A stretch of DNA of 64,000 nucleotides from the NCBI GenBank assembly GCA_027083345.1, contig JALWOZ010000012.1, forward strand, positions 4,025 through 68,024, written 5' to 3'. Positions within the stretch are counted from its first letter, which is position 1. Every line of letters begins with the position of its first letter. The translations under genes and the position numbers were made by a program. Of the stretch, positions 7,642 to 50,070 are shown piece after piece. The notes under the pieces are model-generated. The model ran no database searches. It worked only from the letters and a program-made list of their open reading frames with translations, and was not told the origin of the DNA. This DNA is from Candidatus Kaiserbacteria bacterium. GTDB taxonomy: Bacteria > Patescibacteriota > Minisyncoccia > Phycocordibacterales > UBA2100.

Positions 7642-7687
7642 ACATTTTATTATACCAGAGATTTATAATCTGCTATACTATATTTAT

Positions 7688-12775: not shown

Positions 12776-12812
12776 TTATACTTAGTATACCACGATGTTT
12801 TTTGCTTGCTAT

Positions 12813-14832: not shown

Positions 14833-15813
14833 CTATGCTCTTAGAGTAACTCCATAATTAGATAAGGCTCTTTTTATCTCTTGTAAGCCTTTTTGGCCAA
14901 GTCCTTGTATACCTAACAGATCCTCTTCTCTCTTTCTAACCAATCCGCCAATTGTGCGGATACCCGCCTCACTCATAGCATCTGCAACTCTTGTAGATAA
15001 TTTAAGTTCTTCTACTCTTGTTTTAAATATCTCAGCTGTATCAGGAGACTTGTCTTTCTTCTCCTCTTGATTTGAGTCAACATTCTCTACCTTAAGTGTA
15101 GTCTCGTCTACCTCTGGCTCCTCTTCTTTGAAGCCTATTATAGCCTTTAGTTGATGTATCATTATCTCAATAGACTTCTCTAGTGCATCATGCGCTGAGA
15201 TAGTACCATCTGTTTCTATAAATATCCTTAATCTATTATAGTCTGTCCTATCTCCTACACGCATATTTTCCACCTCATAATTTACTCTTTTTATAGGAGC
15301 AAAAGCTGCGTCGAGTGCTATAGCACCTATGTCTACCTTTTCTTTATTTAACTCCTCTTTTGGCACATATCCCAGACCAGTCTCTATGGTAAACTCCGCG
15401 TTAAAACTAACCTTACCTGTTATGTCTGCTATATATTGACCCTTATTCAACACCTCTACCTGACCGGGAGTCTCAATGTCTGCTGCCGTAACCACTTTGG
15501 GTCCTTTAATGGACATCTTAAGAGTCTGAGGTTCTGTAGTAGTTGTACTAAACCTAACCTTCTTTAGGTTTAACAATATTCTTATTACATCTTCTTTCAC
15601 ACCCTCTATAGTAGAGAACTCGTGGCTAACACCCTCTATTTTAACACTAGTTATAGCCACACCAGGTAGAGATGACAATATAATACGACGCAGAGAGTTA
15701 CCAACGGTATGTCCATAGCCCGGATAAAATCCATCTATCTCATAAATACCGCGATTCTCACTCTCCTCTACTATACGAGGTTTTGTTGGTAATGCTACTT
15801 GGTAATCTGACAT
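14833..15813 (-). CDS. rpoA: DNA-directed RNA polymerase alpha subunit.
   Basis: The N-terminal domain motif GYGHTVGNSLRRILLSSLPG is present, and the gene sits in the alpha-operon position. Confidence 0.9.
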   Translation of the reverse strand: MSDYQVALPTKPRIVEESENRGIYEIDGFYPGYGHTVGNSLRRIILSSLPGVAITSVKIEGVSHEFSTIEGVKEDVIRILLNLKKVRFSTTTTEPQTLKMSIKGPKVVTAADIETPGQVEVLNKGQYIADITGKVSFNAEFTIETGLGYVPKEELNKEKVDIGAIALDAAFAPIKRVNYEVENMRVGDRTDYNRLRIFIETDGTISAHDALEKSIEIMIHQLKAIIGFKEEEPEVDETTLKVENVDSNQEEKKDKSPDTAEIFKTRVEELKLSTRVADAMSEAGIRTIGGLVRKREEDLLGIQGLGQKGLQEIKRALSNYGVTLRA

Positions 15814-15846
15814 ATAAAAATTCTTTAGGATTTAATAATAAATACA

Positions 15847-16440
15847 TTAACGACTATAAAACTCAAATACTGACTGATAATCAAGTATTGTTGCTCCTTG
15901 TTCATACACAGGTACTGATTTAACTAGTACAGTCATCTTTTTATTGTCTACTGATAACCATTTTGGAGCCTTTTCTGTCATATCTCTATCTTTAAATACT
16001 AATTTGTTCTTACTACCGTCTTTAACACTAACCTCATCTCCAACAGCCAGCAAATGAGAGGGTACCTTAAGCTTTCGGCCGTTAACCTGTATATGTCCAT
16101 GAGAGACTAATTGTCTAGCCATACGGCGAGTAGAAGCAAACCCTGCTCTATATACTACATTATCAAGACGCATCTCGAGTAGAGAGTTCATAGTGTTTAC
16201 TGTATCTGCGCTAGACATAGCCAAGTCCACATACTTTCTAAGTTGTCTCTCTGTTATACCATAAGAAAACCTAACTTTCTGCTTCTCTATAAGTTGTTTA
16301 CCGTAATCAGACATCCCTCTACGTCTAGAACCTCCCTTTTTAGACTTAGCCTCAGAGAGTTGGAACTTTTGTGTTTGGCACTTCTCAAAGATACCACCAC
16401 CTAATCTTTTACATATTTTGTACTTTGGTCCAATTTTCAT
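15847..16440 (-). CDS. rpsD: 30S ribosomal protein S4.
   Basis: It has the S4 N-terminus (MKIGPKYKICKRLG) and an S4 RNA-binding domain. Confidence 0.85.
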   Translation of the reverse strand: MKIGPKYKICKRLGGGIFEKCQTQKFQLSEAKSKKGGSRRRGMSDYGKQLIEKQKVRFSYGITERQLRKYVDLAMSSADTVNTMNSLLEMRLDNVVYRAGFASTRRMARQLVSHGHIQVNGRKLKVPSHLLAVGDEVSVKDGSKNKLVFKDRDMTEKAPKWLSVDNKKMTVLVKSVPVYEQGATILDYQSVFEFYSR

Positions 16441-21982: not shown

Positions 21983-22062
21983 AAAACAATTTACTTGTAT
22001 AAGCCAATCATCTGTAGTATAAACACATACGGACAATAAAAATTGAAAAAAGGAGTCTTAAA

Positions 22063-22839
22063 ATGGTTTATCAGTTTAGTATACCTCGCTCGGATATTTG
22101 GGTGAGCATTTTTGATCCCAGTTACGGGGTCAAGATTGATCGCAAAAATTTTGATACCTTCCGACCAATTGCGGCAAAACTACCTAAGTGGGTCAAGCAT
22201 CTGTATATGCCGAAACCTACGCAATTCAACGCAAAAGTCGTTGAGCCTCCCGACTTTTGGGAGAGCTTCAATGTAGGGAGGGTCAAGGTGCATCAAGGCG
22301 TACTCGCTGACGGGTGCATTATACCGCCCAAAAGCGCCTTCGCCGTGACCTCGGCCGATTGCCCAACAATCGTTGCCTATGGCAACGATATTAACGGCCA
22401 TTTGCAGGTTGTCGCGGCGCACGCCGGGCGCGACAGCTTGGTAAAAGGCACTGACATCATGTCTATGTCAGACAAGAGTGTAGTCGCAAATGCTGTGGGC
22501 AAACTGACATCGGCTGGTGTGCCTGCAAAAAAAGTGCATATGCACATTTACTGTGGCATCCGAACGGGGTTTACTCACCCGCTGGATCACCCCCAGTATG
22601 GAGCGAAGAACCGGAGGCTCTTTGTGTATGCAAATATGTACAAAGGAGCTATTCGCAACGAAGAGACTTGCGAGATTGACCTCTATGAGCTCATTAGGGG
22701 TCAGGCCATGGACTGTGATGTGCTGCCCAAAAATGTCGTATTTGACGACGTTGACACCGGCGCGGACAAGCGCTGGGCAAGTACCAGTCGTGAGCCCGGC
22801 ACAGACAAGAGGAATCTTGTCATCGTGTGCCGAGGATGA
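22063..22839 (+). CDS. YfiH/PgeF (Cu-oxidase_4/DUF152)-like protein; compositionally foreign (GC-rich).
   Basis: VTSADCPTIVAY (T-A-D-C-x-P) followed by AAHAGRDS (like HAGWRG) are present. There is a strong SD (aaaggag) 7 nt upstream. GC is markedly above the local background by eye. Confidence 0.4.
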   Translation: MVYQFSIPRSDIWVSIFDPSYGVKIDRKNFDTFRPIAAKLPKWVKHLYMPKPTQFNAKVVEPPDFWESFNVGRVKVHQGVLADGCIIPPKSAFAVTSADCPTIVAYGNDINGHLQVVAAHAGRDSLVKGTDIMSMSDKSVVANAVGKLTSAGVPAKKVHMHIYCGIRTGFTHPLDHPQYGAKNRRLFVYANMYKGAIRNEETCEIDLYELIRGQAMDCDVLPKNVVFDDVDTGADKRWASTSREPGTDKRNLVIVCRG

Positions 22840-22876: not shown

Positions 22877-22883
22877 AACAATG

Positions 22884-22957
22884 TACGCGTACCAGGATTC
22901 GAACCTGGGACCTCATCAGTATCAGTGATGCGCTCTAACCAACTGAGCTATACGCGT
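22884..22957 (-). tRNA. tRNA-Ile (anticodon GAT).
   Basis: Manual fold: acceptor ACGCGTA/TACGCGT, D-arm GCTC/GAGC, anticodon stem CATCA/TGATG with loop CTGATAC, T-arm CCAGG-TTCGAAT-CCTGG. Confidence 0.75.
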
Positions 22958-23006: not shown

Positions 23007-23822
23007 CTACCTATCTAAGCCCTCGCCTAATCTACTATAATTCTTAATAACCTCACCACAATGACGACAATGTACTGCATCAAGTTCATGCATTGAGAGA
23101 CCACATTTACTGCACTTGACATGTGCCCTCTTACCTCGGAATACGGCTCTGGACATATGCATAAAGAGCAAGATGCCGACAACCATTGCAACAACAGAGA
23201 TAAGCTTCCCTCCCTGCCCAACCACTGTAACATCTCCATAGCCTGTGGTGGTCAGAGTAGAAACTGCAAAATACAATGCATCTATATATGTATTAATATT
23301 AGGATTATGAGTAACTTGAGAAGCATAAATAACAGCAGTGGTTACCAATAAAAATATAATAAAGTTAATAACACTAGCCACTATATCCCAATTACGCGCA
23401 ACTACCTGACTCTGGATTTTAGACAAATTCATTATCCTGTATATACGAAATACTCGTATCCACTTTATAAGCCTAAGTGCTGCAAAATTACCAACAAACA
23501 ATGGCATAAAAAGCGAACCTATAACAAGAACGTCTATAAGACTAAACAAATTGAAAACAAATTTAACCTTTTTAGGTGATACCCATAATTGAGCCAAATA
23601 TTCTAATGTAAACACTAAACCAAAAAACACTTCTATACTCTTGATAAGCCAATGTCTCTCAGGGAAAGCTACCTCTATTATAAACAAAGAGAAAACAAAA
23701 AGGTTAACAATTATCAATATAATATAAAACTGCTGACTTTGCTTGCTCTTACCCGCAAACAGACTACGCACCTTCTTCTTTAACTTGTCCCTAGTTTTTT
23801 GCTGATCTTTTTTAACTGTCAT
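23007..23822 (-). CDS. Voltage-gated-type potassium channel (6TM) with a C-terminal zinc-ribbon.
   Basis: It has the K+ selectivity filter TTTGYGDV and an S4-like segment with R at every third position (LRLIKWIRVFRIYRI). The C-terminal sequence CSKCGLSMHELDAVHCRHCGEV forms a Cys4 ribbon. Confidence 0.65.
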   Translation of the reverse strand: MTVKKDQQKTRDKLKKKVRSLFAGKSKQSQQFYIILIIVNLFVFSLFIIEVAFPERHWLIKSIEVFFGLVFTLEYLAQLWVSPKKVKFVFNLFSLIDVLVIGSLFMPLFVGNFAALRLIKWIRVFRIYRIMNLSKIQSQVVARNWDIVASVINFIIFLLVTTAVIYASQVTHNPNINTYIDALYFAVSTLTTTGYGDVTVVGQGGKLISVVAMVVGILLFMHMSRAVFRGKRAHVKCSKCGLSMHELDAVHCRHCGEVIKNYSRLGEGLDR

Positions 23823-23900
23823 ACGTATACCACTACTTAAAGACTACTTTTGTACCCTTAAGTGTAGCATGTATTATACCACTTTCTTTAAGAACTTGCT

Positions 23901-25700
23901 CTACTGAATATATGGCGCTCGCGGAGTACCATTCCATCGAACGTATTCAACTTCAACATCAGGTTTGGCGTTTGGTACAGGGAAACCTAAATTGCTACCG
24001 AAAAACAATCTACTATATAATTTTGAGCCGTCAAACCCACATACATACGGCGCAACATCTCCCCCTATATGATAATCATAAATAACAGGTATAGGATTAT
24101 CGTCAAGATACACATATGCATAAATACTCTCTTTAGGCAAAACTAAACGTATTTTATGGAACTTGTCAGTCAAGTCTGTTTTATATGTATCAAACCCTAC
24201 TCCAAGCGTACCTGAAGACATAGTAATACCATCCGGAGACAAACTAAGGGTTACTGTGCCAAACTGACTAAGATAAGAAACTACCCAAGCATTACTGTCG
24301 CTGTTAGGTTTAACACGTGCTTTTACCTCTAATGTAATACCGCTAGTGCCTGTAGTACCACTTGGACTACATACCATATGTGAAGAAGCATCATTCCAAA
24401 GAGTTGTATTTGGTAAAGATCCCGCAACCACACCCTGTCCTCCATACAAAGCACCGTTAAACCCTTGTACAGAATTAATCATGCCAGAGAAAGCCTCGCT
24501 AATCGAAGCACTAATCGGCAAAGATGGTATTGTTGGTTTTTGTTGTACTGGCGTTAATCTCTGAGAAGGTGCGAAGCTACCTAATCTATATTTAACATAA
24601 TCTATCACATATGCTGCATTTTTATCCGGAGCATTGCTTGCATCTCCTATAAGTAACTGGGGATATTTATAATAAGTCTGCAACTCTTGAGAAAGGCTAT
24701 TTTGAGTAGGAGCCATAGCATACCCAGCCTCTACACCATCAATATAAACATGCATCCTATATGCAGACCCTTGTTTATTGCTTTGTGTAATCCGTATAGT
24801 ATGGAACTTTGATCCTCCTCCAAAATCTCTCGTAAACACATTATCATCTACGTCTCCAGTCCCTACACGAACAGTACCTATACGAGAATTCCAAGTAGGA
24901 GTTAGTGAGACTCTCCATTGAGCACGACCTTTCTCTCCAACAAAACTAACTATAAAACCATCTTTATCTGTTTGCTCATATAATTTAACTCGCATCTCTA
25001 CGGTCATTCCTTTATCTACTGCACTATCAAGCAGAGGATCACGAATCCAAAAATTACCTGTCTCTAATTTATCTATAGCCCGATACCCCACATCATACGT
25101 GTCGACATCCATAAAACCACGTGATGGATAATTTAACCGTTGTGAGGCACTAAATAAAGGTTTGCCTGTATTGGCCATATAATTCCAATCATCCGGTCCT
25201 CCAATATCCCACCTAAAGGGATTTGGTACATTATCTGATGGAGTATCTGAACCATCAAATACATTATGCCACAAACCTCCATCAAACGTATAATTCCACA
25301 TAGCGGAACGTTCATTTATAAACGTTTGAGAATCTTGAGATTGGCATGTTGCATTTGTGTATGAACCATCCAATATCCCATCTATACAAGTCCTAACCTG
25401 ACTTTGACATTGACTGCCGTAAGGTACTGTCGAATCTTTATATGCTATTACATTACTCCCATGCGCTATGGTCTGCCCACCAAAAATACAAGACTTAGGA
25501 GCAACACACGACTGTTTAGATGAAGCTGAATAAGCATTCAATTCTCTCTTTAATTCAACAATTTGAGTTTGCAGCAACCCTATTATCTTAAGTAGAGACT
25601 GAATTTGATTAAATAATACGTCTGCCGTAACTGCACGAGCTGTTACAGGCAATACAAAAAATATTGCGACTATTAATAGTGTTAATATTGTCTTTCTCAT
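23901..25700 (-). CDS. Large secreted hypothetical protein with a signal peptide and an N-proximal coiled coil.
   Basis: MRKTILTLLIVAIFFVLPVTARA looks like a signal peptide. No recognisable catalytic motif was found. The start was chosen at the ATG at 25700; the track extends to a TTG at 25727. Confidence 0.4.
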   Translation of the reverse strand: MRKTILTLLIVAIFFVLPVTARAVTADVLFNQIQSLLKIIGLLQTQIVELKRELNAYSASSKQSCVAPKSCIFGGQTIAHGSNVIAYKDSTVPYGSQCQSQVRTCIDGILDGSYTNATCQSQDSQTFINERSAMWNYTFDGGLWHNVFDGSDTPSDNVPNPFRWDIGGPDDWNYMANTGKPLFSASQRLNYPSRGFMDVDTYDVGYRAIDKLETGNFWIRDPLLDSAVDKGMTVEMRVKLYEQTDKDGFIVSFVGEKGRAQWRVSLTPTWNSRIGTVRVGTGDVDDNVFTRDFGGGSKFHTIRITQSNKQGSAYRMHVYIDGVEAGYAMAPTQNSLSQELQTYYKYPQLLIGDASNAPDKNAAYVIDYVKYRLGSFAPSQRLTPVQQKPTIPSLPISASISEAFSGMINSVQGFNGALYGGQGVVAGSLPNTTLWNDASSHMVCSPSGTTGTSGITLEVKARVKPNSDSNAWVVSYLSQFGTVTLSLSPDGITMSSGTLGVGFDTYKTDLTDKFHKIRLVLPKESIYAYVYLDDNPIPVIYDYHIGGDVAPYVCGFDGSKLYSRLFFGSNLGFPVPNAKPDVEVEYVRWNGTPRAPYIQ

Positions 25701-25713
25701 AAACTGTAGTGTA

Positions 25714-25793
25714 ACATATGTAATCAATATAACTACTACTTTATACTAACACAACACTACTATACATATGTTATCAATTAATGTTGTCAATTA
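25714..25793. repeat. Three copies of an ATGTWATCAAT(TA) motif upstream of the secreted-protein gene. Two copies are tandem 13-mers (25768-25780 and 25781-25793) and one copy lies at about 25714-25728.
   Basis: Direct repeats are visible in the sequence, with 12/13 and 14/15 identities. They are a candidate operator or promoter element. Confidence 0.35.
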
Positions 25794-27931
25794 AAGATAA
25801 TTTTATCACCCTTAAGTGTAGCACGGATTGTATCACCGTCTTCAAACTTACCTCCAATAAGTGCCATTGCCAGCTCATCTAAGAGCTCTGTCTGTACGGC
25901 CCTCTTGAGCGGACGCGCACCGTACGCTGGGTCATAACCAACCTTTGCTATATGATCTTTAACAGCGTCATCTACCTCTAGGGTAATATTGCGCTCGTCT
26001 TTAATACTCTTTATTACTTGCTTGATTTGTATCTCTGCTATCTGTCGTAACATCTCTTTATCAAGAGCTGTAAATTGCACTATGTCGTCAATTCTATTCA
26101 AAAACTCTGGCCTAAAGTGCACTCTCACAGCATCCATCACCTTCTTCTCAGCACTCTTATCTACCTTGCCATCTTTGTCTCCAAGTAAGAATTCACTACC
26201 GATGTTACTTGTGAGTATGATTATTGTATTACTGAAGTTGACAGTCCTGCCATGATTGTCTGTGAGTCTACCATCGTCAAGAACCTGCAAGAGTAAGTTA
26301 AATACCTCCGGGTGAGCCTTCTCAACCTCATCAAAGAGCACTACTGAGTATGGCCTACGGCGCACAGGCTCTGTGAGTTGCCCTCCCTCCTCGTGACCGA
26401 TGTAGCCAGGAGGCGCACCTATAAGCCTGGCTACAGAGTGCTTCTCCATATACTCACTCATATCTATCCTCACCATCGCCTTCTTGGAGTCAAAGAGCTC
26501 TAGTGCAAGCGCTCTTGCAAGCTCCGTCTTGCCGACCCCTGTAGGCCCAAGGAAGAGAAATGAACCAATGGGCTTCTCATGACTCTTGAGGCCAGCGCGA
26601 CTCCTGCGCACCGCACGCGCCACAGCGCTCACAGCCTCCTCTTGCCCTACAACATGCTTTTGCAATTGCTCCTCAAGCTTTGTCAACTTGTCTGCCTCGG
26701 CCTCTACAAGGCGCTCGCTTGGTATACCCGTCCAGTGAGCCACTACCTTTGCCACATCCTCCTCTGTCACTTCCTCACGGATCATACGCTTGCTCTCTGG
26801 TATGACCTCAAGCTCCTTCTGCAACTCTGCTATCTCCTTCTCTAGCTTTGGTATTTTATTATATTGTATTTCCGCAACCTTCTCATATAGTGCCTCACGC
26901 TCATACTGCTCCATCTCCGTCCTTAAGTAGTCTATCTTCTCAGCAACCTCTTTTTGTTTGGCCAGAGCCTCCTTCTCCTTCTTCCACTGCTCCATCTCTT
27001 TATCATTCTCCTCTTTGAGATTTTTGATCCTCTCCTCTATTTTTTGCAATTTCTCTTTATTCTTTGTGCCTTTCTCTTTCTTTAGCATCTCCTTCTCTAT
27101 CTCTAGGCGGGCTATCTCTCTGTTGGCACTGTCTAGCACAGCAGGCATACTCTCTGCCTCTGTCTTAAGCACGCTTGTGGCTTCATCTACCAAATCTATT
27201 GCCTTATCTGGTAAAAAGCGGTCTGAGATGTACCTGTCTGAGAGCTTAGCGGCAGCCACAAGAGCCTCATCTGAGATGCGTACTCCGTGGTGTACCTCAT
27301 ACTTCTCTTTAAGCCCTCGCAAGATTGCTATTGTGTCCTCCACACTCGGCTCACCAACATATACTGGCTGGAAGCGTCGCTCTAACGCCTGATCCTTCTC
27401 TATATATTGTCTGTACTCCTCTAGGGTAGTGGCTCCTATCATATGTAACTGCCCGCGCGCAAGCATGGGCTTAAGCATATTGGCCGCGTCCATTGCTCCG
27501 CTTGTTTTGCCTGCTCCAACTATAGTGTGGAGCTCGTCTATAAAGAGTATTATCTGTCCCTGAGCCTTCTCCACCTCCTCAAGGAGCTTCTGCAAGCGCT
27601 CCTCAAACTCACCTTGATACTTGGCCCCTGCTATGAGGCTACTCATCTCTATCCCTACCACTCTCTTATCTTTAATACTCTCTGGTACATCTCCTGCAAT
27701 TATCCTCTGTGCTAACCCCTCCACTATAGCCGTCTTACCGACTCCGGGCTCGCCAATGAGCACGGGGTTGTTCTTACGCCTCCTGGCAAGCACCTGCATC
27801 ATACGACGCACCTCCTCGTCTCTACCTATCACCGGGTCGAGCTTACCCTCCTTGGCAAGTGCTGTGAAGTCTGTACCGTACTTCTCTAACACACTCTCAT
27901 TTTGACCTTGTTGTGATTGTTGGTTTGGCAT
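25787..27931 (-). CDS. clpB: Clp/Hsp100 AAA+ chaperone, ClpB-like, with a long coiled-coil M-domain and two AAA modules; no N-terminal domain.
   Basis: It has two Walker A motifs ([18 protein letters not shown] and [15 protein letters not shown]), a long KE-rich coiled-coil middle region, and a C-terminal D2 small domain. At 714 aa it is shorter than canonical ClpB. Confidence 0.8.
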
Positions 27932-27967
27932 AAGCTCTATAGATTAGTTAATAATTTTAATATTTAT

Positions 27968-27995
27968 ATTATACACCGCCTGTCAAGTATCACAA
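27968..27995 (-). promoter_or_regulatory. Candidate clpB promoter (TTGTGA, 16 nt spacer, TATAAT on the minus strand), about 35 nt upstream of the ATG.
   Basis: A perfect -10 hexamer was read from the reverse complement of 27968-27973. The -35 is moderate. Confidence 0.35.
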
Positions 27996-28085
27996 AAACT
28001 TGCAAATTGCTCTCTCTCTTGGTATTTTTGTCTTTAGAGTCACAATAGCAATTCCGCCAGTGGCAAAAACAAGGAGGAAAAAAAT

Positions 28086-28232
28086 ATGGGGAGAAAGATG
28101 AGAACAGCCCCTCAGAAAAAACACGCAATGAGGGGATTCGTACCTCGTTGCGGAAGGGGGTCTAACGGCCCCAAGAAAATGAAAGCTCGGTGCTGTCTGA
28201 GTAGACACAGGCGTAGGAGGAAACCTGTATGA
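28086..28232 (+). other. GC-rich small ORF (48 codons) preceded by a strong SD and encoding a very basic Cys-containing peptide (MGRKMRTAPQKKHAMRGFVPRCGRGSNGPKKMKARCCLSRHRRRRKPV). It could instead be a structured ncRNA.
   Basis: AAGGAGG lies 8 nt before the ATG at 28086, the frame is open to the TGA at 28230-28232, and a hairpin terminator follows about 30 nt later. It is below the ORF-track size cutoff. Arg-rich ORFs can arise by chance in GC/purine-rich DNA. Confidence 0.25.
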
Positions 28233-28262
28233 TCTCTCAATGAACATCAAAGGAACATCAAA

Positions 28263-28291
28263 GCCCCAAGATAGTAATATCTTGGGGCTTT
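28263..28291. terminator. Perfect hairpin gccccaagata-gtaa-tatcttggggc flanked by AAA and TTT. It is a candidate terminator for the 16S transcript (minus strand) and/or the small plus-strand cassette.
   Basis: The inverted repeat is visible. The U-tracts are short (3 nt) on both sides. Confidence 0.45.
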
Positions 28292-28684
28292 AACTTATCC
28301 GTTACAATTAAATAGCTAATCACCATACACTAAACCTGCAATTTCTCAATTACACAGTCTTAAAAATGTAGAAACAAATGAGTGTATACTCTTTTGTTTC
28401 GTCCACTTTACCACAGTGCACTCTCTGCTGTGGATTTCGGCTGTCTTTCCAGCTGTCATGTATAGATTAAGGTGCAATACAATTGCCCAATAGCAATAGT
28501 GCTATTATCGACAAGTAAGTCAAGTATGCGTACGCAATACTCGACGGATTCCATTTGGATTGATTCCACGACCAGCTTCCGCTAGCCGTGCCTTGTTACG
28601 ACTTATACCTTGTCACTGAATTTACCTTAGGCTGCCATAAAGACAGACTTTGGGTACTCCCAGCTCCCTTGTATTGACGGGCGG

Positions 28685-29576
28685 ATTGCAATAATGAAGG
28701 TTATCATCTTGCGTTCCCACGTAGCAAACGGTTTTCCCGTACTACGCGAGTCCAATAGTTCACTGATTCATACTTTGCTTAAAAGTACGAATCTTTTCAA
28801 TACCTTTTGGTGTCAGATGCTTACCTTGGCTAACCAAGTCTGCAATCTGACAAAAGATTTTGAAGCTTCTACCTTTAGAGGTAGTCTGCAGTTTATGCTT
28901 TTTGAAAAATGGAATCAGTGTTGACTCTATATCTCTCCAAGCACTTACAGTGTATCTATAACACTGAGTGTGATTTTTACGTTGTTCTTTTTGAAAATAT
29001 ACATTGCCACAATTAAGGGTTTTGCATATTCTATCTAGTATTCCTTTGTCTTTTGCTTGTAATTTTAAGTGAAAGTGCAACTGCACCTTATATCCACTTT
29101 TATAAGCTTTTGACTTAACAATACTGACATAAAAACAACCTTCACCATCAGTGATACCAACAATGTAATCTGCTGATACTATCGGTTTCGTCCTTCCCAT
29201 GCTACTTATTATAACATAACTTGCTATAATTAGATTGACGCATGGTACTACGACTCAGCTGACTTCTCATAACTTCTGACAAAACCTTTTCGGTGTCATG
29301 AGATCTCCCTGGGTCACTCTACATACCATTCTAAACATCCAACTACGACTTTTATCGTATACTTCTTCAATACCCACCAGAGTGAATCGTATACGTCGTT
29401 TTGATTATCATGTATTGCTACATGGAAGGCTGTTCTTCGCTACTTAGACCCTTCAGACGCTCTCTCGCGAGACGCGTCCTGTCTTTTCACTACGCTTATC
29501 TTACAACCGGTTGACTATAAGTAAGGGATTGATTTTAACAATCTGGCATTTTGTAGAGCTGCCAGGCACAGTTATT
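28685..29576 (-). mobile_element. Intervening sequence (intron-like) inside the 16S gene that carries a homing-endonuclease ORF.
   Basis: 16S collinearity with E. coli is broken after ...CCGCCCGTC on one side and resumes at GTACTCACA on the other. The insert is AT/GC-mixed and encodes a LAGLIDADG protein in the same orientation as the rRNA. The group I versus other class was not determined, and the boundaries are accurate to about 2 nt. Confidence 0.7.
28760..29200 (-). CDS. LAGLIDADG-family homing endonuclease (single-motif type).
   Basis: IVGITDGEGCFYVSI is a canonical LAGLIDADG motif. The 146-aa size fits homodimeric I-CreI-like enzymes. It is located inside the rRNA insertion. Confidence 0.75.
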   Translation of the reverse strand: MGRTKPIVSADYIVGITDGEGCFYVSIVKSKAYKSGYKVQLHFHLKLQAKDKGILDRICKTLNCGNVYFQKEQRKNHTQCYRYTVSAWRDIESTLIPFFKKHKLQTTSKGRSFKIFCQIADLVSQGKHLTPKGIEKIRTFKQSMNQ

Positions 29577-31008
29577 TGTGAGTACAAGGCTCGAGAACGT
29601 ATTCACCGTGACTTGCTGATTCACGATTACTAGCGATTCCGACTTCATGAGGTCGAGTTGCAGACCTCAATCCGAACTTGGGCTACTTTTAGGGATTTGC
29701 TCCAGCTTACGCCATCGCGCCCCTCTGTAGTAACCATTGTAGCGTGTGTGCAGCCCGGGATGTCAAAGGGACATGCTGACTTGGCGTCATCCTCACCTTC
29801 CTCCCCCGTGAGGGGGCAGTCTCGCCTGACAAATATAACAGGCAACGAGGGTTGCGTTCGTTACCCCACTTAAGGGAACAATTCAAACCACGAACTGACG
29901 ACAGCCATGCATCACCTGCCTAACACCCTCGAAGGAACCTATCTTTCAATAGGCGTGCAGTTAGGTTTCAAACCCCGGTAAGGTTTTCCGTTTAGCTACG
30001 AATTAAGCCACGCGCTCCACCGCTTGTGCGAGCCCCCGTCTATTCCTTTGAGTTTTAAACTTGCGTTCGTACTACCCAGGCGGTCCGTTTAACGCGTTAG
30101 CTACGTCTCAGAGAGGGTCGATGCTCCCTAAAACTAACGGACAGCGTTTAGGCCTAGGACTACTGGGGTATCTAATCCCATTCGCTACCCTAGGTTTCGT
30201 GTCTCAGCGTCAGGAGTGGTCCAGTGTGTTGCCTTCGCTTTTGGTGTTCCCCAAGATATCAACGGATTTCACCCCTACACCTTGAGTTCCACACACCTCT
30301 ACCATCCTCTAGTGTTGCCGTTTCGCTCGCCTTCCCGGGGTTAGGCCCCGGACTTTAACAAACGACTAACAACACCGCCTACACACCCTTTACGCCCAGT
30401 GAATCCGGGTAACGCTTGAGGCTCACGTATTACCGCTCCTGCTGGCACGTGATTAGGAGCCCCTTATTCATGAGGTAACGTCAATAAACTTCCTCCCTCA
30501 TAAAAGGTATTTACGCACCGAAGTGCTTCATCTACCACGCGGCATCGCACCGTCACACTTTCGTGCATTGCGGATGATTCTCGACTGCAGCCTCCCGTAG
30601 GAGTTTGGACCGTGTCTAAGTTCCAATGGTGGGGGTCAGGCTCTCACCTCCCCTAAGCGTCGTAGCCTTGGTAAGCCATTACCTTACCAACAAGCTGATA
30701 CTAAGCAGGCCGCTCCATAAGCGATAAATCTTTCCTCTTGCGAGATATCGTGTATTATCCTGGATTTCTCCAGGTTATTCACGACTTATGGGTACGTTCC
30801 TACCTGTTACTACCCCGTTTGCCATGGGTCTAACCCATTCGACTTGCATGCCTTATCCATGCCGCCAGCGTTCACCCTGAGCTAGGATCAAACTCTAATT
30901 AAAAAGTGAACGAAACAAAAGAAAATACAATCTTTTGATATCGTGGTTGTTACTGATTCTTTTAAAACGTAATGTTTTGTGTAGTTTAAACTTTTCTAAA
31001 CAAAAAGA

Positions 31009-31037
31009 AATATACAGGTTTTGTATATATGATGCAA
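31009..31037 (-). promoter_or_regulatory. Candidate 16S promoter P2 (TTGCAT, 17 nt spacer, TATATT), about 115 nt upstream of the mature 16S 5' end.
   Basis: The hexamers were read from the reverse complement. The context is AT-rich, so specificity is low. Confidence 0.3.
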
Positions 31038-31153
31038 ATATATACTTAATAAAAAATTAAATATAATTTGCTTCTATCTATTCAATTATCAACGAACTTG
31101 CCCTGAACAAAGTTGAAGGGCTAACTTGAGCGCAAAGCGCACAAGTGTCGCCT

Positions 31154-31181
31154 ATTATACACATAAGTTAATGCTATGCAA
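31154..31181 (-). promoter_or_regulatory. Candidate 16S promoter P1 (TTGCAT, 16 nt spacer, TATAAT), about 260 nt upstream of the 16S 5' end.
   Basis: A perfect -10 hexamer and a good -35 were read from the reverse complement of 31154-31181. Confidence 0.35.
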
Positions 31182-31191
31182 ACGATATTAA

Positions 31192-31659
31192 TTATTTTAT
31201 GTCTACAATCTTCTTGAATCTGACTTCTGAAGAAGGCACATCTTCATCAATATCTTTATAAGCTAAAATATAAGTACTCTTATCTTTTAATACCGCAAAC
31301 TCTTTTCCCGCTCCACCCCAATAGCAAGTGTATGCTGTAATTACCCTATCTTCACTTGTATGAGACATACCATCTGTGCACCCTACCAAAATACCATCAT
31401 CACCTTTTAGAAAATCTGTCATGTTATATGTTGTACCATGTATATTAAGAGACAACTCATAAATAGGAGCACCGTAATCTGTATCACGCACCTTTCGAGA
31501 AAGCCAATGAAAATCAGATCGGTTATACGACTTAGTTTGTACTACATCTTTACTTTCTCTTTTTGTAATTGATTCTGACATATCAAAAAAATACCAAACA
31601 CCTCCCATTACGACTCCACCTATAATTACACCCACCAAAATACATAAAAACTTCTTCAT
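31192..31659 (-). CDS. Small membrane-anchored hypothetical protein.
   Basis: It has an N-terminal TM helix (ILVGVIIGGVVMGGVWYFF). There are no recognisable motifs. Confidence 0.35.
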   Translation of the reverse strand: MKKFLCILVGVIIGGVVMGGVWYFFDMSESITKRESKDVVQTKSYNRSDFHWLSRKVRDTDYGAPIYELSLNIHGTTYNMTDFLKGDDGILVGCTDGMSHTSEDRVITAYTCYWGGAGKEFAVLKDKSTYILAYKDIDEDVPSSEVRFKKIVDIK

Positions 31660-34137: not shown

Positions 34138-34851
34138 TTACTTAAGTTGTGGGTTTATGTTGCACGAGAACGCACAACTCCCGATACTCCAACATTCGCC
34201 ATCAGGAATATACGCACTCACTTCCCATCTTCGCAATACACCTCTCCAGCGTACATTAACAGAGAAGATCTCGTTATGGACTCCACGAACATAGAAGATA
34301 TTCCAGTTGCCATTAGTAACGAAAACCGCAGTTCTTCCGTTTTGTTGTTCATCAATCATATAGGCAAGATACGTACAGAAACTGTAAGTATCTTCAAAGA
34401 CATGGTTATTCGGCATTTCCTCTCGAATCTCTGTGTCATCAGCATCTTTTGTGAGACAATAAATTACAATAGTCGCCGATGGTACAGACCCCTGCAACTC
34501 TATAGCCCGTAGTATCTTATCATTGAAATCATCTGATACATATAACCCATTACGAGTCTTGAAGTACCTATATATATTTGGGTTAAAACTAGCCATCCTG
34601 GTTGGCAGTGTAAACTCACTACTACGTTCAAGAGCGCTTTTGGTTATTGAGACTTTTACCTTTCCGGACAGATAGTCCCTAACTGACTGCTCACCACCAA
34701 GTTTTTTAACCAGCGCGTTGAGCTGGCCTACGGTGGGATTTTTCGAAGCAAAATTTGTTATAACATTTCTCCTTGGGCTTCTTTGCCAATTTGACACATC
34801 TAAACCGAGGCAGGTACTGCTCCCACAATGGTCACAGCAATAAAACACCAA
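34138..34851 (-). CDS. Hypothetical protein in a compositionally atypical (GC-elevated) island. The N-terminus is Cys-rich (CCDHCGSSTC).
   Basis: It is a 237-codon ORF with elevated GC. No family was recognised and the start is uncertain. Confidence 0.35.
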   Translation of the reverse strand: MVFYCCDHCGSSTCLGLDVSNWQRSPRRNVITNFASKNPTVGQLNALVKKLGGEQSVRDYLSGKVKVSITKSALERSSEFTLPTRMASFNPNIYRYFKTRNGLYVSDDFNDKILRAIELQGSVPSATIVIYCLTKDADDTEIREEMPNNHVFEDTYSFCTYLAYMIDEQQNGRTAVFVTNGNWNIFYVRGVHNEIFSVNVRWRGVLRRWEVSAYIPDGECWSIGSCAFSCNINPQLK

Positions 34852-34970
34852 TTAATTATATTGGCATCTCTTTGCCATGACCATTTATTTACAACTTATT
34901 ATAAAGGAACTATGACAATCTATACTACAGATACTAAACTGTGTCCAGTTTTGACTGTTGTCGGCGCCAT

Positions 34971-35008
34971 AAAAAAGTCCCTCAATGCACTTAGTGTACG
35001 TAAGGGAC
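34971..35008 (-). terminator. Hairpin terminator after the 200-aa island gene: gtccct-N20-agggac followed by T6 on the minus strand.
   Basis: The inverted repeat plus the aaaaaa run (T-run on the minus strand) are visible. Confidence 0.5.
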
Positions 35009-35038
35009 AAAGGTTCTAAGGTTCAAAGAACTTAGTTC

Positions 35039-35641
35039 TTAGCGACCAAGTTCCTGTTGCGGTACAACCACACGATGACGATCGCCGGCATCCCAGACAC
35101 CGTCGTTCTCGAAGCGATACGTGCACACCTTGAGCTCATCAGAGTCCACGTAGGCATCCGCTACAAACGGAACATCTTCAACCACCAACAGGAAGAAGGT
35201 ACAGTAACCGCCCTGCCGAAGCTTGTCGCGGTGCTCGCGACAAAAATCGATAATCTGCCCCTGTGTAAGGCACAGATCTTTAATTTTGCCGAGAGAGCCA
35301 AACACTTCGCCAAATGTGGCGTTTTTGTTCAACTCTCGCACCTCAACTGGCGCGGCTTTCGTAGCCACACCAGATGACTTGTCTATGCCCCATTCTTTGA
35401 AATCTGGGTCCAGCCATCCGGTGAAGACATCACCGGCATCTGCAATAGTCTCGGTGCCATCCGTTGCACCGACCATGATCACTTCGTCGCCATAAAGGCG
35501 ACGAAGAATCTTTGGTTGAATCAAATCCTGAATTGCCTCTGAAACCGCATCGGGGTCAAGCAATCCTTCACGCACTCTCCAAAACGCATCTGCTTGTTGC
35601 CGTGCGAATCTGCCCAGCACTTCGTCTGATACTTTTTGCAT
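35039..35641 (-). CDS. Hypothetical protein, strongly GC-rich relative to the genome and preceded by an SD-like GAGGA.
   Basis: It is a 200-codon ORF. Its composition is about 20 percentage points above background by eye. No family was recognised. Confidence 0.4.
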   Translation of the reverse strand: MQKVSDEVLGRFARQQADAFWRVREGLLDPDAVSEAIQDLIQPKILRRLYGDEVIMVGATDGTETIADAGDVFTGWLDPDFKEWGIDKSSGVATKAAPVEVRELNKNATFGEVFGSLGKIKDLCLTQGQIIDFCREHRDKLRQGGYCTFFLLVVEDVPFVADAYVDSDELKVCTYRFENDGVWDAGDRHRVVVPQQELGR

Positions 35642-35853
35642 CTGACTATCCTCTTCAGTTTCGCTGTTGAAATTCTAACTCCGCCAACATGACTTCGCCA
35701 CAGCGTAAGATGTTCCTCACACATGAACACATTACGCTACGGCGAAGTTACTGCAAATTAAGCACTTATTAACCTTATTTGTAAAAGGACGAAACTGTTA
35801 AGTTAGTAACATAATATTAGCCTGAAGTCAAGTTCCTACTTAACTAAGTTGCT

Positions 35854-39788: not shown

Positions 39789-39806
39789 ATTGACAGTATA
39801 TCATAT

Positions 39807-42470: not shown

Positions 42471-42528
42471 AATATGTTATTATAGCAGGTACTGATACAA
42501 AGATATTAAATTATTAACAAAATAAAAT

Positions 42529-49750: not shown

Positions 49751-49869
49751 AAGCTCAATGGTACACCAAACTCATAATTTATAAAACCCCATAACCCTTG
49801 ACAAATGTGGGGGGTGATAAGGTGAATATGTTGCCAACTAGGCAACTCTTCAACAGAAAGGAGGCTACT

Positions 49870-50007
49870 ATGCCCTATCAAACTGAAGAACAGTTCCACA
49901 ACAAATACTTCCTGTGTTCCATCGGGGGGAGTGGCGACTGGGATGATGGCGCCGCCAGCGACCAGGGCAATGGTGACAGCTCTGGTGATGTGGGTAATGA
50001 CCTGTAA
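49870..50007 (+). CDS. Small acidic peptide gene (45 aa, MPYQTEEQFHNKYFLCSIGGSGDWDDGAASDQGNGDSSGDVGNDL) in a GC-rich mini-cassette.
   Basis: There is a perfect SD AAAGGAGG at 49857-49864 with 5 nt to the ATG, an upstream TTGACA at 49797-49802, and a strong terminator at 50027-50070. It is below the ORF-track cutoff as a standalone ORF. It conflicts with an antisense 91-codon ORF. Confidence 0.35.
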   Translation: MPYQTEEQFHNKYFLCSIGGSGDWDDGAASDQGNGDSSGDVGNDL

Positions 50008-50026
50008 ATTCCCACTCATCACCTAG

Positions 50027-50070
50027 GCCCAATTCCGTGTTACAATACATGCGGGATTGGGCTATTTTTA
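50027..50070 (+). terminator. Rho-independent terminator: GCCCAATTCCG-N14-CGGGATTGGGC followed by tattttta.
   Basis: An 11-bp stem with one G-U pair, followed by a T-rich tail, is visible. Confidence 0.6.

Follow-up and report, generated by a model that had tools for sequence, protein, structure and literature searches.

The 16S rRNA gene and its 3′ tail

The window examined here, by which we mean the whole 64-kb stretch of contig JALWOZ010000012.1, carries a single 16S rRNA gene on the minus strand (Rfam SSU_rRNA_bacteria, RF00177, 1268 bits). Our subject is the 3′ tail of this 16S, where the anti-Shine-Dalgarno (anti-SD) is normally found, and the start sites of the genes that would pair with it through a Shine-Dalgarno (SD) sequence. 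The gene consists of two exons separated by an intron (Table 1). The junctions were set by alignment to the intron-less relative L137, and the intron boundaries are accurate to within 1–2 nt. The open reading frame (ORF) of the intron (29200-28760) matches Pfam LAGLIDADG_1 (E = 1e-21), and an Rfam group-II-D1D4-1 match (29301-29190, 37.7 bits, gathering threshold 35) lies inside the intron just 5′ of this ORF. The D5/D6 group-II models of Rfam gave no match in the intron. As the intron is present in the relative L245, absent from L137 and apparently also absent from L247, it is mobile among close relatives.

In exon 2, AAGUCGUAACAAGG precedes helix 45, which is formed by CACGGCUAGC-GGAA-GCUGGUCGUG (28590-28567, minus strand). 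This helix is intact, having a 10-bp stem with 10/10 standard pairs and a GGAA loop. The tail that follows reads GAAUCAAUCCAAAUGGAAUCC, and its E. coli counterpart is GAUCACCUCCUUA. In the ungapped register with E. coli, the position homologous to CCUCC reads AAUCC (28561-28557); the tail keeps G1530/A1531 plus the U-C of the old core. CCUCC does not occur at any sense-strand position between the 16S leader and the processing stem, the intron included. A first-pass annotation of this DNA had described an intact helix 45 and the loss of the CCUCC core, and the minus-strand reading agrees on both points. A canonical SD/anti-SD system has CCUCC in a single-stranded 16S 3′ tail, and the Bacteroidia-type sequestered anti-SD is present but occluded; the window 16S has neither.

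Related tails were collected in two scans. The genome scan, with one genome per species, used helix 45 plus a following GAAU as its pattern. Its matches included many Bacteroidota (GAAUACCUCCUUU) and about 26 candidate phyla radiation (CPR) metagenome-assembled genomes (MAGs) with the titles Candidatus Paceibacteria, Paceibacterota, Taylorbacteria or Nomurabacteria. The CPR MAGs all have the helix-45 type of the window and tails such as GAAUAAUUCAAUUUGAAA. Most matches of the broad pattern (...GAAT) were Bacteroidota with GAAUACCUCC, which served as a comparison set only. The metagenome scan used the helix-45 sequence alone, left the tail unconstrained and gave 120 additional loci. CCTCC followed helix 45 in only 1 of the 141 Paceibacteria/Parcubacteria-type sequences. 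The comparison with the tails of related CPR genomes, which the first-pass annotation had proposed, thus gave 140 of 141 likewise without CCUCC. L211, which has the sole canonical tail with the same helix 45, was rejected as a close relative (≤78.5% identical to the other sequences) and is uninformative on the transition.

Across approximately 140 Paceibacteria/Parcubacteria 16S sequences, we found a conserved tail of about 18 nt with the consensus GAUUAAUUCAAUUUGAAA. Of its positions, G1, A2 and U8 vary hardly or not at all, and 82% of the sequences have C9. The information content is high through tail position 18, then drops below 0.25 bit. Since the conservation in the lineage collapses beyond this position, the mature 3′ end probably lies near 28548, some 18–20 nt past helix 45. 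The best 16S identity of the window is 84–86%, to metagenome contigs having the same tail type, and the tails of the syntenic relatives L245, L246 and L247 read GAAUCAAUCC-GAAU/GAUA-GGAA(U/A)CC. Judged by the helix-45/tail signature, which is common to the Paceibacteria, Paceibacterota, Taylorbacteria and Nomurabacteria MAGs, the source organism belongs to the Parcubacteria/Paceibacteria. The window 16S displays everything that marks the anti-SD-less 16S of this group (an intact helix 45, no CCUCC(U) and the features of the lineage). By sequence, it is a member of a large clade in which the anti-SD core has been replaced, not randomly decayed. The word "degenerate", applied to the tail in the first-pass annotation, is therefore inappropriate: across the lineage, the tail is a conserved substitute that contains a covarying mini-hairpin.

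The mini-hairpin was seen in the minimum free energy (MFE) fold of the window tail. As its arms pair UCC with GGA, the remnant of the anti-SD (UCC) is itself base-paired. We tested the hairpin with a position-restricted, Watson-Crick-only search and then with a covariance model (CM) alignment, which together replaced an earlier loose search. An exact 4-bp Watson-Crick hairpin with its 5′ arm starting at tail positions 6–9 was found in 99 of 136 distinct sequences, compared with 16.5 in shuffled ones (maximum 30 in 300 shuffles). The hairpins comprise at least eight compensated arm types and are 3–5 bp long across the clade; the arms were TTCA/TGAA in 56 sequences, TCCA/TGGA in 16, TTTC/GAAA in 8, TTTT/AAAA in 7, TTCC/GGAA in 5, CTCA/TGAG in 2 and GTCA/TGAC in 1. 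In the CM alignment, 76.5% of the cells of the tail helix were paired, both-side changes occurred at 4/4 pairs, and the covariation of the whole structure was 0.155 versus 0.073 in shuffled alignments, with partner-slid controls at or below 0.072. The ungapped MAFFT alignment A1 under-counts the pairs, since the loop lengths differ. The close syntenic relatives keep the UCC/GGA arms, while the loop varies (GAAU, GAUA). The hairpin probably either belongs to the mature rRNA or defines the 3′ end of this rRNA.

The tail is embedded in a precursor that can be followed up to a processing stem. The leader and the trailer form 21 consecutive base pairs plus extensions, giving a duplex of -51.1 kcal/mol versus -30.5 +/- 4.2 kcal/mol in shuffles. 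The stem is kept in L245–L247, and the structured trailer inside it shows conservation at the family level. GTCGAT was present in 54% of 136 related trailers versus 2.8% in shuffles, its median distance past helix 45 being 54 nt; this GUCGAU motif may be a processing signal. The consensus CGGAACAAAAGAC is also enriched among the trailers of the Paceibacteria clade. Single-stranded CACCUUAAUCU in the family trailer was considered as a displaced anti-SD and rejected: it is not maintained across the clade, CACCT being observed 10 times versus 15 expected, and CACCUUAAUCU also fails to match the AGGAG consensus of the boxes described below.

Gene starts in the window and its relatives

SD-like pairing was assessed for a simple ORF set as the duplex energy (ΔG) against ACCUCCUUA, comparing the upstream region (-20..-1) with random intragenic sites. 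For the 52 ORFs of the window, the mean ΔG was -1.04 upstream versus -2.87 intragenic, and values of -4.5 kcal/mol or lower were reached by 8% versus 28%. The same script applied to 55 E. coli genes as a control yielded -5.13 upstream versus -2.19 intragenic (67% versus 11% at or below -4.5). For 333 genes of the relatives, the means were -2.22 and -2.64, respectively. SD-like pairing is depleted upstream of the genes in the window, and there is no enrichment in the pooled relatives. These values confirm the statement of the first-pass annotation that native starts lack an SD, and the enrichment test by free energy that it had suggested detected none in the window ORFs or in the genes of the relatives. 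Its wider claim that the host does not use SD pairing agrees with most genes, which show no SD signal; a few keep a conserved GGAGG.

A different signal was found at the starts. A -10-like hexamer beginning at -16 to -11 from the ATG occurred in 18 of 51 window genes, where 2.9 were expected. The boxes often have the extended form TGnTATAAT or read TATACT, and the most enriched 6-mers in the region -22..-1 were TGGTAT and TATACT. An ATG-proximal -10 box was present in 23% of the genes of the relatives and in 4% of those in the Bacteroidota loci. With this geometry, transcripts would start at the AUG or directly beside it, the signature of leaderless mRNAs; for these genes, transcription probably begins at the AUG itself. 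The remaining genes, e.g. those of the rpsM-rpsK-rpsD-rpoA-rplQ-rplM-rpsI cluster, have short A/U-rich spacers before their starts.

Purine-rich boxes at a few starts

The pgeF-like gene starting at 22063 has an AAGGAG at 7-nt spacing (ΔG -8.2). Its product has about a dozen detectable homologs, six of which were placed on contigs (L243, L245–L249). In L245–L248, the gene order is as in the window over approximately 20 kb (dnaG-hydrolase-rpsI-rplM-rplQ-rpoA-rpsD-rpsK-rpsM-infA-DUF4015-rsmI-mpl-(bpt)-pgeF-like-...-clpB-16S-secF-secD-spoU). The 16S of L245, L246 and L247 has the same anti-SD-less tail; no 16S 3′ end was found in the available parts of L248 and L249 or in L243. All seven pgeF-like orthologs (the window and the six others) have AGGAG/GGAGG 6–9 nt before the ATG (ΔG -8.2 to -12.9) at 37–64% protein identity to the window protein; among the neighbouring genes, a box of this kind is nearly absent. 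Alignment of the seven upstream regions revealed a shared, -10-like TAGTATAAA box some 45 nt upstream of the ATG. The idea that a conserved hairpin masks the GGAGG was rejected, RNAalifold predicting no pairs in the leader. With these elements, the gene resembles a leadered transcript that has a classical ribosome-binding site. Its G+C content at third codon positions (GC3) is no higher than that of its neighbours in L246 (0.36), L247 (0.41) and L248 (0.41). The synteny, the box kept in 7/7 orthologs and the unexceptional GC3 indicate that the gene is not a recent import and that the box is under selection.

Three further starts named in the first-pass annotation (28086, 49870 and 35641) were inspected, and all four indeed carry purine boxes, the one at 35641 being weak. 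The 28086 cassette (27990-28300, plus strand, convergent with the 16S) has a promoter-like TTGCAA-17-TATTTT upstream and a strong terminator hairpin (28262-28293). Its promoter and untranslated region (UTR) are conserved in L245, and basic ORFs of 46–47 aa with similar boxes occupy the same place in L245 and L246; L247 has no counterpart. The counterpart peptides of the window, L245 and L246 are not alignable, and the coding status is uncertain; the cassette could specify a tiny ribosome-associated protein or an RNA. The 49870 cassette (49790-50070, plus strand) has a TTGACA promoter-like site and a terminator. Neither small cassette gave anything usable in Rfam at a relaxed threshold or in Pfam at E ≤ 10. 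The 35641 ORF has no Pfam family, and it was rejected as an ortholog of a 203-aa ORF of L246, as blastp found no similarity.

The four boxed starts are all among the seven highest-GC3 ORFs of the window, and there are also GC-rich genes without a box, clpB (GC3 0.52) and argS (0.51). Among the relatives, the SD-like genes had a GC3 excess of +0.063 versus +0.004 (p = 0.001), a weak association that is in part a trivial effect of composition. Boxes with ΔG ≤ -8 were found in 8–9% of their genes with an upstream gap of more than 40 nt, versus 4.5% inside genes, and in 2–3% of the leaderless-type or short-gap genes. The association of the boxes with GC-rich genes, as proposed in the first-pass annotation, was therefore observed, but the foreign origin that it assigned to these genes was not confirmed. 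Between genes of one contig (25787-27931, 48053-49750 and others), GC3 ranges from 0.24 to 0.61. The GC3 of clpB is 0.57 in L243, and in L245 (0.46) and L247 (0.43) it is about equal to that of the neighbours. Since the GC3 bias of this gene recurs in more than one genome, recent transfer does not fully explain it.

Table 1. Coordinates of the features discussed, in window positions.
Feature	Position	Strand	Description
16S exon 1	29579-30903	-	5′ end to ~E. coli position 1400; Rfam RF00177
16S intron	28685-29578	-	~894 nt, with LAGLIDADG homing-endonuclease ORF; alignment to L137
16S exon 2	28567-28684	-	begins CCGCCCGUC; shortened helix 44, then helix 45; sequence and L137 alignment
16S 3′ tail	28546-28566	-	follows helix 45; no anti-SD
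Tail mini-hairpin	28550-28559	-	UCC (28559-28557), loop AAAU, GGA (28552-28550); MFE fold
Trailer	28507-28545	-	long hairpin GUCGAGUAUUGCGUACGCAUACUUGAC (28545-28519), then GUCGAU motif (28512-28507); fold
Pre-16S processing stem, 5′ strand	30903-30930	-	leader directly abutting the mature 16S 5′ end
Pre-16S processing stem, 3′ strand	28384-28409	-	~155 nt after helix 45; pairs with leader 30930-30903
Leaderless-type promoter TATAAT	7649-7654	-	ends 7 nt before ATG of ORF 7641-6055
Further ATG-proximal -10 boxes	7674-7679 (+), 12784-12789 (-), 42479-42484 (-), 39795-39800 (-)		
pgeF-like gene	22063-22839	+	258 aa, divergent Cu-oxidase_4 (PgeF/YfiH-like)
pgeF-like 5′ region	22015-22062	+	TAGTATAAAC box (22015-22024), unstructured leader, AAGGAG (22050-22055)
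AAGGAGG box	28071-28077	+	8 nt before ATG of 48-aa very basic ORF 28086-28232; ΔG -11.4
GGAGG (in AAGGAGG)	49860-49864	+	5 nt before ATG of 45-aa acidic Gly/Asp-rich ORF 49870-50007; ΔG -11.6
Weak purine box GAAGAGGAUAGUCAG	35642-35656	-	before 200-aa ORF 35641-35039; GAGGA only; ΔG -5.8, GC3 0.52

Possible explanations and known systems

With the above results in hand, we consider it very probable that the anti-SD core has been replaced by a conserved structured tail, that start sites are not chosen by SD pairing, and that leaderless initiation is prominent. According to this explanation, the ~18-nt tail would fold back into a mini-hairpin of 3–5 bp after a normal helix 45, and the selection of start sites would be independent of SD pairing. 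About one-third of the genes would have their -10 box placed so that the transcript begins at the AUG or a few nucleotides from it, and these leaderless mRNAs would be read directly by the ribosome with the initiator tRNA. Operon-internal genes would initiate after short, A/U-rich, unstructured spacers. The change of the tail may have been allowed by a relaxed constraint, through the loss of SD use and presumably of the tail-binding factor Era.

Several points weigh against this explanation. The tail hairpin is only 3–5 bp long and A/U-rich, and the palindrome could be a DNA or protein-binding site instead. In the loose search (best hairpin anywhere, G-U allowed), 90% of the real and 67% of the shuffled tails had at least 4 bp, so that the two were not separated; this search is undiscriminating because the tail sequence is A/U-rich. 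The tails are phylogenetically related, and the shuffle tests overstate the significance. Both the 3′ end of the mature 16S and the sites of transcription start are predictions from the sequence. A small set of genes keeps a conserved, well-placed GGAGG, which is unexpected if nothing in the cell reads these boxes. Finally, our view covers 64 kb of the genome, and a second 16S copy with an anti-SD may exist.

The absence of the anti-SD could also be apparent, or be offset by another pairing. A pseudogene, an assembly error or a chimera, in which the tail is merely damaged, has nothing in its favour beyond the odd sequence; its probability is practically negligible, given a full-length, high-scoring 16S, the near-identical tail and trailer in the independent assemblies L245–L247 and a tail type common to approximately 140 sequences. 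The first-pass annotation had offered another reading, in which the true 3′ end is the CCUCCUU at 28071-28077, which splicing of a second intron would connect to the tail. CCTCCTT is indeed present on the rRNA strand ~470 nt downstream of the tail, but it is the exact antisense of the AAGGAGG that lies 8 nt before the plus-strand ATG at 28086. Moreover, the leader-trailer stem closes at 28409-28384, approximately 300 nt before 28077, leaving the string outside, and a terminator-like element of a hairpin plus U (28293-28262) stands in between. Rfam found no intron family at E ≤ 1 in 27000-31500 besides the known intron. L247 has only 330 nt from the tail to clpB, with both cassette and string absent, and L246 is also without the string. 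Among 132 related trailers, CCTCC shows no enrichment, with 10 occurrences versus 8.0 expected. The stem, the Rfam search, L247 and the trailer counts refute the second intron, which we regard as extremely improbable. A new SD/anti-SD pair, in which an mRNA motif complements the new tail (e.g. GGAUU with AAUCC), is hardly more credible. GGAUU is found upstream of a few genes, such as 13650 and 14089; however, the duplex energy to the window's own tail was -2.97 upstream versus -3.71 intragenic, and anti-tail 5-mers occurred in 12% of the upstream regions versus 19% of the intragenic sites and 31% of the shuffles. The tail segment that would have to pair is itself paired in the hairpin.

The conserved boxes are the harder part to explain. 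The first-pass annotation took the boxes on GC-rich genes to be non-functional leftovers of recent transfer from SD-using donors. This is possible, although on balance doubtful. It fits the boxes on four of the seven highest-GC3 ORFs and the higher GC3 of the relatives' SD-like genes, as well as the 28086 and 49870 cassettes, which have a full sigma-70-type promoter, UTR and terminator, unlike native genes; the 35641 gene lies in a segment that is absent from L245 and L247. For 22063, a donor relic is refuted: the gene is syntenic and vertically inherited, keeps its box in all orthologs despite their divergence, and its GC3 does not exceed that of its neighbours in three relatives. The 28086 cassette is positionally conserved in two relatives, clpB and argS are GC-rich without a box, and a G-rich motif is likelier in GC-rich DNA anyway. 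What stands of the earlier claim is the association with GC3. Alternatively, a few leadered mRNAs may use a GGAGG that is read by something other than the CCUCC of the 16S (a partner RNA, a protein or another rRNA copy), SD-type recognition being reduced and not abolished. This would account for the pgeF-like gene, which has its own -10-like box, an unstructured leader and a box that its neighbours lack, for the boxed small basic ORF beside the 16S in three genomes, and for the larger share of strong boxes at gaps above 40 nt. We nevertheless think it unlikely, since the 16S precursor has no CCUCC and the trailers show no enrichment of it, the boxes are in only slight excess overall, with local GC as a confounder, clpB is leadered and lacks a box, and no candidate reader emerged. 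It is more speculative still, and in our judgement quite unlikely, that the UCC remnant locked in the conserved terminal mini-hairpin acts as an in-cis SD mimic, and that a selected GGAGG, kept nevertheless at SD distance in a few mRNAs with leaders (those of the pgeF-like gene and of the small basic ORF), can promote or control initiation without pairing to a 16S CCUCC. A donor relic is insufficient to explain the conserved GGAGG at 22063.

The core finding, the loss of the anti-SD in Parcubacteria, adds one more case to a trait already in the literature. According to the searched text of Tsurumaki et al. (2022, RNA 28:1041; PMC9297842), a CCTCCT motif could be detected in just 48% of the Parcubacteria; the lineages that lack it overlap with the group devoid of uL1, and SD helices are considered probably not to form in the anti-SD-less members. 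Their Parcubacteria subgroup resembles the window in having a CPR 16S without CCUCCU after helix 45. That text treats the presence or absence of the motif, and contains no replacement tail, hairpin, leaderless signature or GGAGG boxes. In the searchable literature, we found no description of a replacement tail with a hairpin, of a leaderless promoter signature in Paceibacteria or of the conserved GGAGG, and no novelty is claimed. As for rplA, era and der, they are not among the genes of the 64-kb window, which is a part of the genome and has no bearing on their genome-wide presence.

Outside the CPR, the Flavobacteriia/Bacteroidota are similarly SD-scarce, and the fetched Bacteroidota loci show no SD enrichment. 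Most Bacteroidota differ from the window in keeping GAAUACCUCCUUU, and their loci also differ in the rarity of the ATG-proximal -10 box. The anti-SD of Bacteroidota is occluded rather than lost. Mammalian mitochondrial mRNAs are leaderless. Nanoarchaeia and mammalian mitochondria, which represent another domain and an organelle, share with the window the combination of CCUCC core loss and leaderless mRNAs, and no tail hairpin is described for them. The link between CCUCC loss and leaderless mRNAs in Nanoarchaeia was reported in a 2024 survey (PMC10783764), and mitochondrial small-subunit rRNA is without an anti-SD (PMC10582724). In Chryseobacterium, Elizabethkingia and Blattabacterium, CCUCCU is also missing, with no compensating SD (Amin et al. 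2018, PMC6107228; PMC10783764). Organisms lacking CCUCCU generally lack SDs, and a -10-like TATACT is enriched upstream in some genomes (Amin et al. 2018, PMC6107228). The KH domain of Era recognises GAUCACCUCC in the 16S tail (Tu et al. 2009/2011, as cited in PMC10582724), and the tail positions changed in the window are exactly those that Era reads; this link is correlative and comes from the literature. Most Paceibacteria are reported to be without era (PMC12641178), which fits a relaxed constraint on the tail.

Beyond the published presence or absence of the motif, these results suggest that the tail is replaced by a conserved structured element, not eroded, and that leaderless promoters take over the selection of start sites. 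Gene finders and expression designs built on the presence of an SD will misplace starts in the very large, mostly uncultured Paceibacteria group, and the CCUCC landmark for annotating the 16S 3′ end fails there. The handful of genes with a conserved GGAGG provides a testable handle on the role of an SD-like sequence without an anti-SD. A cultured relative among the Paceibacteria exists, Minisyncoccus archaeiphilus (PMC12281837), which makes this role experimentally accessible in principle.

Two side observations concern the surroundings of the 16S gene. A tRNA-Ile(GAU) gene (22883-22957, minus strand) is found 5.6 kb downstream of the 16S; clpB, a 608-aa ORF and a K+ channel gene (23007-27931) stand between the two. 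The usual site of this tRNA is the 16S–23S spacer. No 23S was found within the window, so the rRNA genes are unlinked. Between secD and spoU, L246 carries a bAvd gene (15582-15932), an accessory gene of diversity-generating retroelements; the equivalent site in the window is occupied by unrelated ORFs (34138-35641).

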